A DNA stretch of 64,000 bases from Candidatus Heimdallarchaeota archaeon (GTDB lineage: Archaea; Asgardarchaeota; Heimdallarchaeia; Hodarchaeales; Hodarchaeaceae), in NCBI GenBank assembly GCA_020353515.1, contig CP070695.1:473173-537172 (forward strand), read 5' to 3'. The notes below the pieces were generated by a model that was given only the letters and a program-made list of their open reading frames with translations, did no database searches and was not told the DNA's origin. Positions 42,822 to 43,540 of the stretch are shown here, piece after piece. The translations under genes and the position numbers were made by a program. Every line of letters begins with the position of its first letter. Position 1 is the stretch's first letter.

Positions 42822-43145
42822 ATTTTAGAAGTACTCACTCATCGTTTCTTCTCCGCAACAATATCAGCACTAGTAGAATTATTACTATAATAAGCTCTTT
42901 TTCATTAGTCAATCATCCTTCTCATAAAATTCAGGATAGCTTTTGATCTCTACTCATTTATCATTGGTGGTTTAACAATATTTCTTTCTCTCAATTATTA
43001 CAAATACTTATAAGCAGAAAGCCAGTGTATTATTCTGTGATGACTAGTTAATGTAGTCTCAATTTGATATGTGCTTCCTAACATATATCAAAACAGCTCA
43101 ACTAGCTGTTCTTTCTTAATAGTCATCATACAGGAGTTTATGATC

Positions 43146-43412
43146 ATGAGCGAAAAAGATACACCACCATCAGATGTAGAATTGGCGAAAGGGAAAGAAG
43201 GATTAGAACACGTTGAAACTAAAGCAGCAGTTTCGGAACGTAAGGTAGTACTTGTATGTAATAAATGTGGTGCTGAGCAAGATTTCCCAGTCTGTGAGGA
43301 ATGTGGAGAACCAATGGATTTTGAAGAAAGAAAGTTCAGCTGTGCCTCATGTGGGAAAGACGCAGCAGTTCCAGCGCATTGTGGTGAGCCCATGGCTCCT
43401 AAAATAGTATAA
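43146..43412 (+). CDS. Small zinc-ribbon protein (88 aa) with thymosin/WH2-like N-terminal segment
   Basis: AGGAG at 43132-43136 precedes ATG 43146; CNKC, CEEC, CASC and HCGEPM. Confidence 0.75.
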   Translation: MSEKDTPPSDVELAKGKEGLEHVETKAAVSERKVVLVCNKCGAEQDFPVCEECGEPMDFEERKFSCASCGKDAAVPAHCGEPMAPKIV

Positions 43413-43540
43413 GTCTACTTGAACATACTTCCATTTCATACTTATGGTTCCATCCCCATATCAAACCATTATAACTCCATTCCACCCTTTTATTTTTTTT
43501 CACAAAGAATGCTTCAATTAAGAGATTTCATTTCACGTTT

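Follow-up and report, generated by a model that had tools for sequence, protein, structure and literature searches.

P0001, an 88-residue microprotein encoded in the window (the whole 64,000-nucleotide stretch of a Candidatus Heimdallarchaeota archaeon genome analysed here), joins a conserved N-terminal tail to a duplicated Cys/His module that is homologous to a module of Asgard copper-type P1B ATPases. We favour, with moderate confidence, a reading in which P0001 is a metal-loaded adaptor or sensor whose tail acts as a docking motif, because the tail is as conserved as the metal ligands, is absent from cop-linked paralogs and is multiplied in longer relatives. Residues 34-88 would fold into a compact Cys/His module whose knuckles resemble those of rubredoxins and zinc ribbons; the pattern CxxCG-x7-P-x-(CxxC or HC)-G-x-P-M occurs twice in it, and metal would be bound at a Cys4 first site and a Cys2-His-Cys second site. 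Residues 1-33 would form a flexible tail in which a short helix and a linker containing Gly accompany the motif L-x-H-V-E-T; the tail would recruit a partner or signal the metal state to that partner. Of the partners that can be named, actin comes first, and to judge from sequence likeness it is a doubtful one.

The gene itself is well defined. Its coding sequence occupies 43146..43412 on the + strand, with a TAA stop codon at 43410-43412. Differences from two orthologs of the same length fall 14/15/50 on codon positions 1/2/3, and 13 close homologs with 58-91% identity are found in metagenomes, one of them named as Hodarchaeales; the open reading frame is therefore a real coding gene. The closest named homologs likewise belong to Hodarchaeales. 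An antisense open reading frame at 43088-43393 (-) was considered as a gene and rejected because the substitution pattern fits the + frame.

Translation of 43146-43409 (+) yields exactly the protein described in the first-pass annotation, namely the tail MSEKDTPPSDVELAKGKEGLEHVETKAAVSERK followed by CNKC, CEEC-GEPM, CASC and HC-GEPM elements. The annotation had also claimed a clear Shine-Dalgarno sequence and a gene that stands alone, and both descriptions agree with the DNA. A Shine-Dalgarno-like AGGAG is read at 43132-43136 (+), 9 nt 5' of the ATG at 43146, and a second in-frame ATG, at 43140, lies too near to it. Upstream, a gap of 324 nt separates the gene from a same-strand MFS transporter gene, and the downstream gene, for a CitMHS/ArsB-type permease, is convergent. 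The wider neighbours are an acetyl-CoA synthetase gene upstream (+) and MeaB and enolase-superfamily genes downstream. This order is kept within the genus only. Metal-homeostasis or cop genes are absent from the neighbourhood (acetyl-CoA synthetase, MFS, CitMHS/ArsB-type permease, MeaB), and PADLOC and PHROGs searches for a defence or phage origin return sub-threshold zinc-ribbon noise only.

Two further sequence features flank the coding sequence. A perfect 7-bp inverted repeat, AACAGCT-CAACT-AGCTGTT, lies at 43092..43110 (+), 36-54 nt 5' of the start codon, and was picked up by a scan for terminator-like structures that found 2 where 0.3 were expected. This repeat, just 5' of the promoter region of the gene, may act as a terminator for the preceding MFS gene or as an operator. 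A T-rich run at 43488..43500 (+), about 76 nt past the stop codon, is a possible archaeal oligo-T transcription terminator.

The C-terminal module, residues 34-88 (43245..43409, +), is beta-rich in the AF2 model, with pLDDT 87-91. Alignment of its relatives reveals an internal duplication in which CxxCG-x7-P-x-HC-G-x-P-M occurs twice. Repeat 1 runs from C38-x2-C41 to C50-x2-C53-G-E-P-M57 (43257..43316, +), and repeat 2 from C66-x2-C69 to H78-C79-G-E-P-M83 (43341..43394, +). Among 53 distinct small members of the family, C38, C41 and C66 are invariant (53/53 each), and C69, H78 and C79 are retained in 49, 45 and 44 of the 53, respectively. The Met that follows each HC or CC is nearly invariant as well (M57 in 51/53, M83 in 49/53). 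A ligand set of Cys, His and Met is typical of soft-metal sites, and the ligand pattern leads us to expect that the module holds two metal ions.

The two sites have fared differently within the family. In the P0001 clade the H-C of repeat 1, present in more distant members, is replaced by CxxC (C50-x2-C53), and the resulting Cys4 site is probably a structural Zn site. Site 2 of P0001 has a Cys2-His-Cys pattern, and the C69 knuckle of repeat 2 is lost in some close homologs (P0011, P0015 and P0016). The Cys4 site 1, together with the loss of the CxxC at site 2 in close homologs, suggests a shift away from copper handling. The module also occurs in other settings. In P0013, a 75-aa protein from a metagenome, the tail is swapped for another N-terminus with a CPFCG knuckle and the module is 87% identical to that of P0001; this protein may be a chimeric or recombined form. 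P0028 (1045 aa) and P0042 have a PGAP1-like alpha/beta-hydrolase region and two tandem modules at the C-terminus, and they carry no tail motif.

An exhaustive phmmer search of 1.84 billion representatives returned 35 relatives of P0001. No Pfam or NCBIfam family reaches its cut-off on the module, where only zinc-ribbon noise is seen: DZR (PF12773), Zn_ribbon_6 (PF07191) and the NCBIfam family CxxC_Se_CxxC score 19.5-19.6 bits against cut-offs of 25-27.3, and 17.7 against 40. Desulforedoxin (PF06397, Desulfoferrod_N) gives weak matches in 4/24 members, with a best E of 0.0013. The best match among PDB sequences is the Cys-rich region of PriA (E 0.036); Foldseek against the PDB finds nothing at E<=0.001 (best E 0.076), and the VIA wide fold search lists only generic zinc-ribbon, desulforedoxin and Rieske-like rows at Z<=3.4, with 1cfw_A at Z 2.9. 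The label 'primosomal protein N'' that JGI attaches to some members is a zinc-ribbon artefact.

Homology of the module to segments of copper pumps is strongly supported. A profile of the family (A2), searched over 400 genomes of the phylum and in the host genome, which is a single 4.94-Mb contig, finds matches in 276/400 of the former. In the host genome it detects a 65-aa open reading frame at E 9.5e-10 and, at E 5.6e-8, the N-terminus of the 940-aa ATPase next to it. The two belong to a cop-like cluster at about 4712438-4716551 of the contig (G000:C1; L035:2939-7052), in which the 65-aa free module lies directly upstream of the ATPase. The latter is a CPC-type P1B ATPase with E1-E2_ATPase and Hydrolase domains, and its N-terminal module accompanies two HMA domains; its CPC, YN and MxxSS transmembrane motifs we take to be the P1B-1 (Cu+) signature. 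A divergent HTH_AsnC+TRASH (Lrp-type) regulator gene is located about 700 bp from copA and the 65-aa open reading frame. By BLASTP, P0001 and its 65-aa paralog share 35% identity across the entire 55-residue module.

The same association recurs elsewhere in the phylum. In family f20 the profile matches the C-terminus of ATPases of about 960-1080 aa (E 1e-13 to 1e-18); the one f20 protein inspected is a P-type ATPase of the CPC type in which the module comes after a YHS-like segment. Family f19 offers a further case: in one closed genome an open reading frame for the free module adjoins a Cu-type ATPase. The module is thus linked to ATPases at the C-terminus in f20, at the N-terminus in the host genome and as a free copy beside copA, so what the first-pass annotation had called zinc ribbons is a copper-export-associated metal module: its Cys/His metal-binding elements stand, and the notion of a generic ribbon pair gives way to a module common to copper P1B ATPases. 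By homology, it appears to be a metal-binding unit that Asgard archaea employ in the context of copper export, and the module of P0001 would descend from the one that they fuse to copper-exporting P1B ATPases and also encode as a free protein beside copA. These comparisons define an uncurated, Asgard-wide Cys/His module that is found on copper pumps at either end and free beside copA, and that has also been incorporated into microproteins, HTH-like proteins and one protein resembling a hydrolase.

The tail, residues 1-33 (43146..43244, +), is predicted to be flexible. AF2 assigns it pLDDT 58-65 and models a short helix at residues 10-16 (DVELAKG; 43173..43193, +) and then an extended segment. 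L13 is the only conserved hydrophobic residue of the P0001 helix (L/V/I in 48/53 members). The linear motif L20-E-H-V-E-T-K26 (43203..43223, +) follows, and across the 53 distinct small homologs it is as conserved as the metal ligands: L20 is present in 51/53, H22 in 45/53, V or T at position 23 in 52/53, E24 in 48/53 and T25 in 49/53. A short linear motif is thereby defined on which the constraint is as strong as on the ligands of the module. At position 2 of the motif Glu is found in 33/53 members, where Lys or Arg is canonical, which bears out a caveat attached to the original description of this segment.

The motif is kept in distant homologs and varies in a limited way, as in LKHTET, FKHVET and LAKTET, or LKETQT after an MSDK start in the Heimdall-group family f7. 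In the genomes of that family (L014, L019, L020 and L028) the tail begins with MSDK and carries LKETQT or LKETST, and the last knuckle of the module is altered to E-C-D-G-x-K-C. Ahead of the motif, distant members show hydrophobic residues at positions -15/-11/-7 and a linker of the form G-x-x-G. The cop-linked paralogs and the ATPase fusions have no tail. His22 and Glu24 are unlikely to be extra metal ligands, since several members have another residue in place of His and copies of the motif lie at a distance from the module.

In one respect the motif exceeds chance: when the 4.94-Mb genome is read in six frames, the pattern [LFM]xH[VT]E[TP] has a single occurrence in the 22,804 open frames that are 50 codons or longer. 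A motif-only profile (A6), searched in 83 genomes of the class, recovers this small-protein family only, with matches in 15 genomes at E<=0.05, and in that search the motif is never found apart from the metal module. No longer proteins were found that share sequence words with residues 1-40; the tail alone has no match among PDB sequences, and a feature search of the ESM Atlas with the tail gave no usable match. Taken at face value, this pattern of conservation is what would be expected if the tail behaves as a short linear docking motif.

Several longer relatives carry the motif more than once. In P0039 / P0178 (L037:8001-8990), a 329-aa protein of Heimdallarchaeaceae, about six repeats of a helix and L-x-x-[VT]-E-[TP]-(RDPT) precede the module, and in a single-sequence AF2 model of P0039 (pLDDT 41, to be read for secondary structure only) each motif marks the end of a helix. 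Two motif copies are present in each of the HTH-like fusions P0022, P0032 and P0041. These belong to a set of proteins of 200-340 aa (P0022, P0032, P0034, P0038, P0041, P0026 and L055:766-1794) that have an N-terminal HTH-like domain with a weak match to DUF977, followed by one or two helix-plus-motif elements and then the metal module. By analogy, their architecture resembles that of a one-component sensor. No theme recurs in the gene neighbourhoods of P0039 and P0022.

All named members of the family are Asgard archaea, assigned to Hodarchaeales, Heimdallarchaeaceae, Thor-, Hermod- or Promethearchaeota, in agreement with the restriction to Asgard that the first-pass annotation had put forward as a check: every member with a source name is Asgard. 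The annotation had named as evidence against itself an N-terminal segment that is unconserved among homologs or that occurs in actin-less lineages. On both counts its proposal comes through, since the tail is conserved in the 53 homologs, the motif is repeated in longer relatives and the named members are all Asgard.

That proposal was a WH2-like segment fused to metal-binding elements, and its likeness to beta-thymosins and WH2 domains is suggestive but weak. The pattern L-x-x-[VT]-E-T matches 4/6 positions of LKKTET, all four of them conserved throughout the family. When a profile of 32 tails (A5) was compared with 177,635 PDB sequences, thymosin beta-9 (1hj0_A) ranked first and in register, at E 0.13; this match is lost with the motif-only profile A6. 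The thymosin beta-9 segment outscores composition-matched shuffles in 5000/5000 cases with A5 and in 4997/5000 with A6, a p value that is conditional on a hypothesis chosen for its likeness. In the f7 proteins, the tail starts with MSDK, and L-K-E-T-Q-T is as far from the N-terminus as the corresponding motif of thymosin beta-4.

Curated profiles do not recover the likeness. Pfam Thymosin (PF01290; gathering score 24.8 bits) and WH2 (PF02205; gathering score 23.1 bits) have no match at E<=10 to residues 1-36 of P0001 or to the tails of ten relatives. Over the whole host genome PF01290 gives an unrelated 12-bit match elsewhere and PF02205 two weak matches elsewhere (E 0.056 and 1.09), and neither picks the P0001 gene; PF01290 also failed to detect the f7-type genes in five genomes. 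The better of the two WH2 matches, at G000:C1:1452740-1452787 (+) (E 0.056, 16.5 bits), lies inside a 741-aa open frame and is probably noise, because control genomes also give matches. Of the proposed WH2-like segment, then, a predicted short helix in a low-pLDDT tail and the conserved L-x-x-[VT]-E-T are seen; PF01290 and PF02205 do not match it, and the thymosin beta-9 match at E 0.13 is not robust.

The actin background that the first-pass annotation had invoked is present in the host genome, which encodes an actin (L001:1474-2616; PF00022, 443 bits) and a two-domain gelsolin (L036:839-2083; G000:C1:2119838-2121082, +; PF00626 twice). The linker between gelsolin domains D1 and D2 reads GFLKHVEV, close in sequence to the GLEHVET of P0001; at E<=0.05 the motif profile does not detect it. 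The tail of this gelsolin is long and Pro-rich, and its C-terminal region contains no CxxC motifs. Crystal structures show that such linkers of Asgard two-domain gelsolins, which read LKHV/LRRT in Heimdall and LVDV in Loki, make contact with actin (PMC9433394). In the literature consulted, WH2-like motifs are described in Asgard only inside gelsolins, and the established Asgard actin regulators are profilins and gelsolin/cofilin-type proteins only (PMC9433394; 10.1101/2025.11.30.690169). A tie between the P0001 module and the Zn domain of the Loki two-domain gelsolin was considered and rejected, because that domain is a different (CxxC)2/Tyr-loop domain. A 345-aa match in genome G135 proved to be an HTH-like fusion, not a gelsolin.

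How the tail is used can be read in several ways. One is that it binds G-actin in the manner of beta-thymosins and WH2 domains, in which case the attached metal module would serve for regulation or localisation. Relatives with tandem motifs would then engage several actin subunits, and in the HTH-like fusions the binding of actin would be linked to that of DNA. This reading is consistent with the four shared LKKTET positions, the amphipathic helix and G-x-x-G linker that precede the motif in distant members, and the predicted helix and extended segment of a flexible tail that recurs in tandem in P0039. It is also consistent with a family that is Asgard-only as far as its members are named, a genome with actin and a gelsolin linker of similar sequence, the actin contacts of such linkers in crystals, the first rank of thymosin beta-9 and the thymosin-like start and motif spacing of the f7 tails. 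We nevertheless regard actin binding, and with it multi-subunit binding and coupling to DNA, as unlikely. Neither Pfam family matches the tails, and the thymosin beta-9 hit depends on the profile used. The motif often has Glu at position 2, the P0001 helix keeps one conserved hydrophobic residue, the linker is longer and no second helix follows. Moreover, no longer protein was found to share sequence words with the tail, and in the 83 genomes searched the motif was always accompanied by the metal module.

A strict Cu/Zn metallochaperone, whose module would hand Cu(I)/Zn(II) to a CopA-type ATPase or a sensing regulator with the tail as docking element, would explain why the module is common to CopA-type ATPases and the small protein beside copA; the Cys, His and nearly invariant Met would fit a soft-metal site, and the HTH-like fusions resemble one-component metal sensors. 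This we consider quite unlikely: docking to CopA can do without the tail, which the cop-linked copies do not have, the P0001 gene lies away from cop genes, the P0001 clade has a Cys4 site 1 and a decaying site 2, and the tandem tails of P0039 fit poorly with a one-to-one hand-off. There is very little probability, in our estimate, that P0001 is a generic zinc-ribbon microprotein acting on nucleic acid or on the transcription/translation machinery, with the tail as an unrelated conserved linker. Small CPxCG zinc-finger proteins of haloarchaea are said to have been proposed as binders of nucleic acid or such machinery, and the module has sub-threshold likeness to double zinc ribbons, TFIIB, RPB9/TFS and HVO_2753-type fingers, with PriA as best PDB match and an HTH-like N-terminal domain in some relatives. 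Every such match nevertheless falls short of the curated cut-off, significant homology is confined to the ATPase-linked module, and a mere linker would not equal the ligands in conservation or be repeated. A metal-loaded adaptor or sensor with a docking tail is the reading that we retain.

Were the tail to bind actin after all, P0001 and its relatives would be the first archaeal actin-monomer-binding microproteins outside gelsolin and profilin, and binding might be coupled to a metal-sensing module. Tandem relatives of the P0039 type would then be candidate multi-actin binders or nucleators, and P0022, P0032 and P0041 candidate actin-responsive DNA-binding proteins. A stand-alone thymosin/WH2-type element would also push this class of regulator back before eukaryogenesis.

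Among known systems, beta-thymosins (PF01290) resemble P0001 in being small and in having a flexible N-terminal segment with an MS(E/D)K N-terminus and a short helix followed by L-x-x-[TV]-E-T. P0001 differs from them in having Glu/His for Lys/Lys, a weaker helix, a longer linker and a fused metal module. The linker from helix to motif is 1-2 residues longer in P0001 than in canonical WH2 or thymosin sequences. The second, C-terminal helix with which thymosins cap the pointed face of actin has no counterpart in P0001, where residues 34-88 are beta-rich. WH2 domains and the D1-D2 linkers of gelsolins share with P0001 a Leu-x-x-Val core in an extended segment after a helix; WH2 domains have about three hydrophobic residues in the helix, a short linker and LKK[TV], whereas the P0001 clade keeps L13 only. 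Compared with the Asgard two-domain gelsolins (PMC9433394), P0001 is without a gelsolin domain, and PF02205 finds no match in it.

The module invites comparison with desulforedoxin/rubredoxin-like knuckles and with the Cys-rich double zinc ribbon of PriA, which share CxxCG ... CCG-x-x-M-like knuckles and a small beta-rich fold. Matches to these domains are below thresholds, and P0001 has two sites rather than one, with His replacing one Cys. The closest counterpart is the unnamed module associated with copper ATPases, which has the same duplicated CxxC...(H/C)C-x-x-P-M pattern and is connected to P0001 by profile matches at E 1e-8 to 1e-18. Fusion to a copper P1B ATPase, or adjacency with one, is seen in the paralogs only and not at the P0001 locus. 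Relative to the cop-linked copies, P0001 alone has the 33-residue conserved tail, and its first site is Cys4 where theirs is Cys2-His-Cys.
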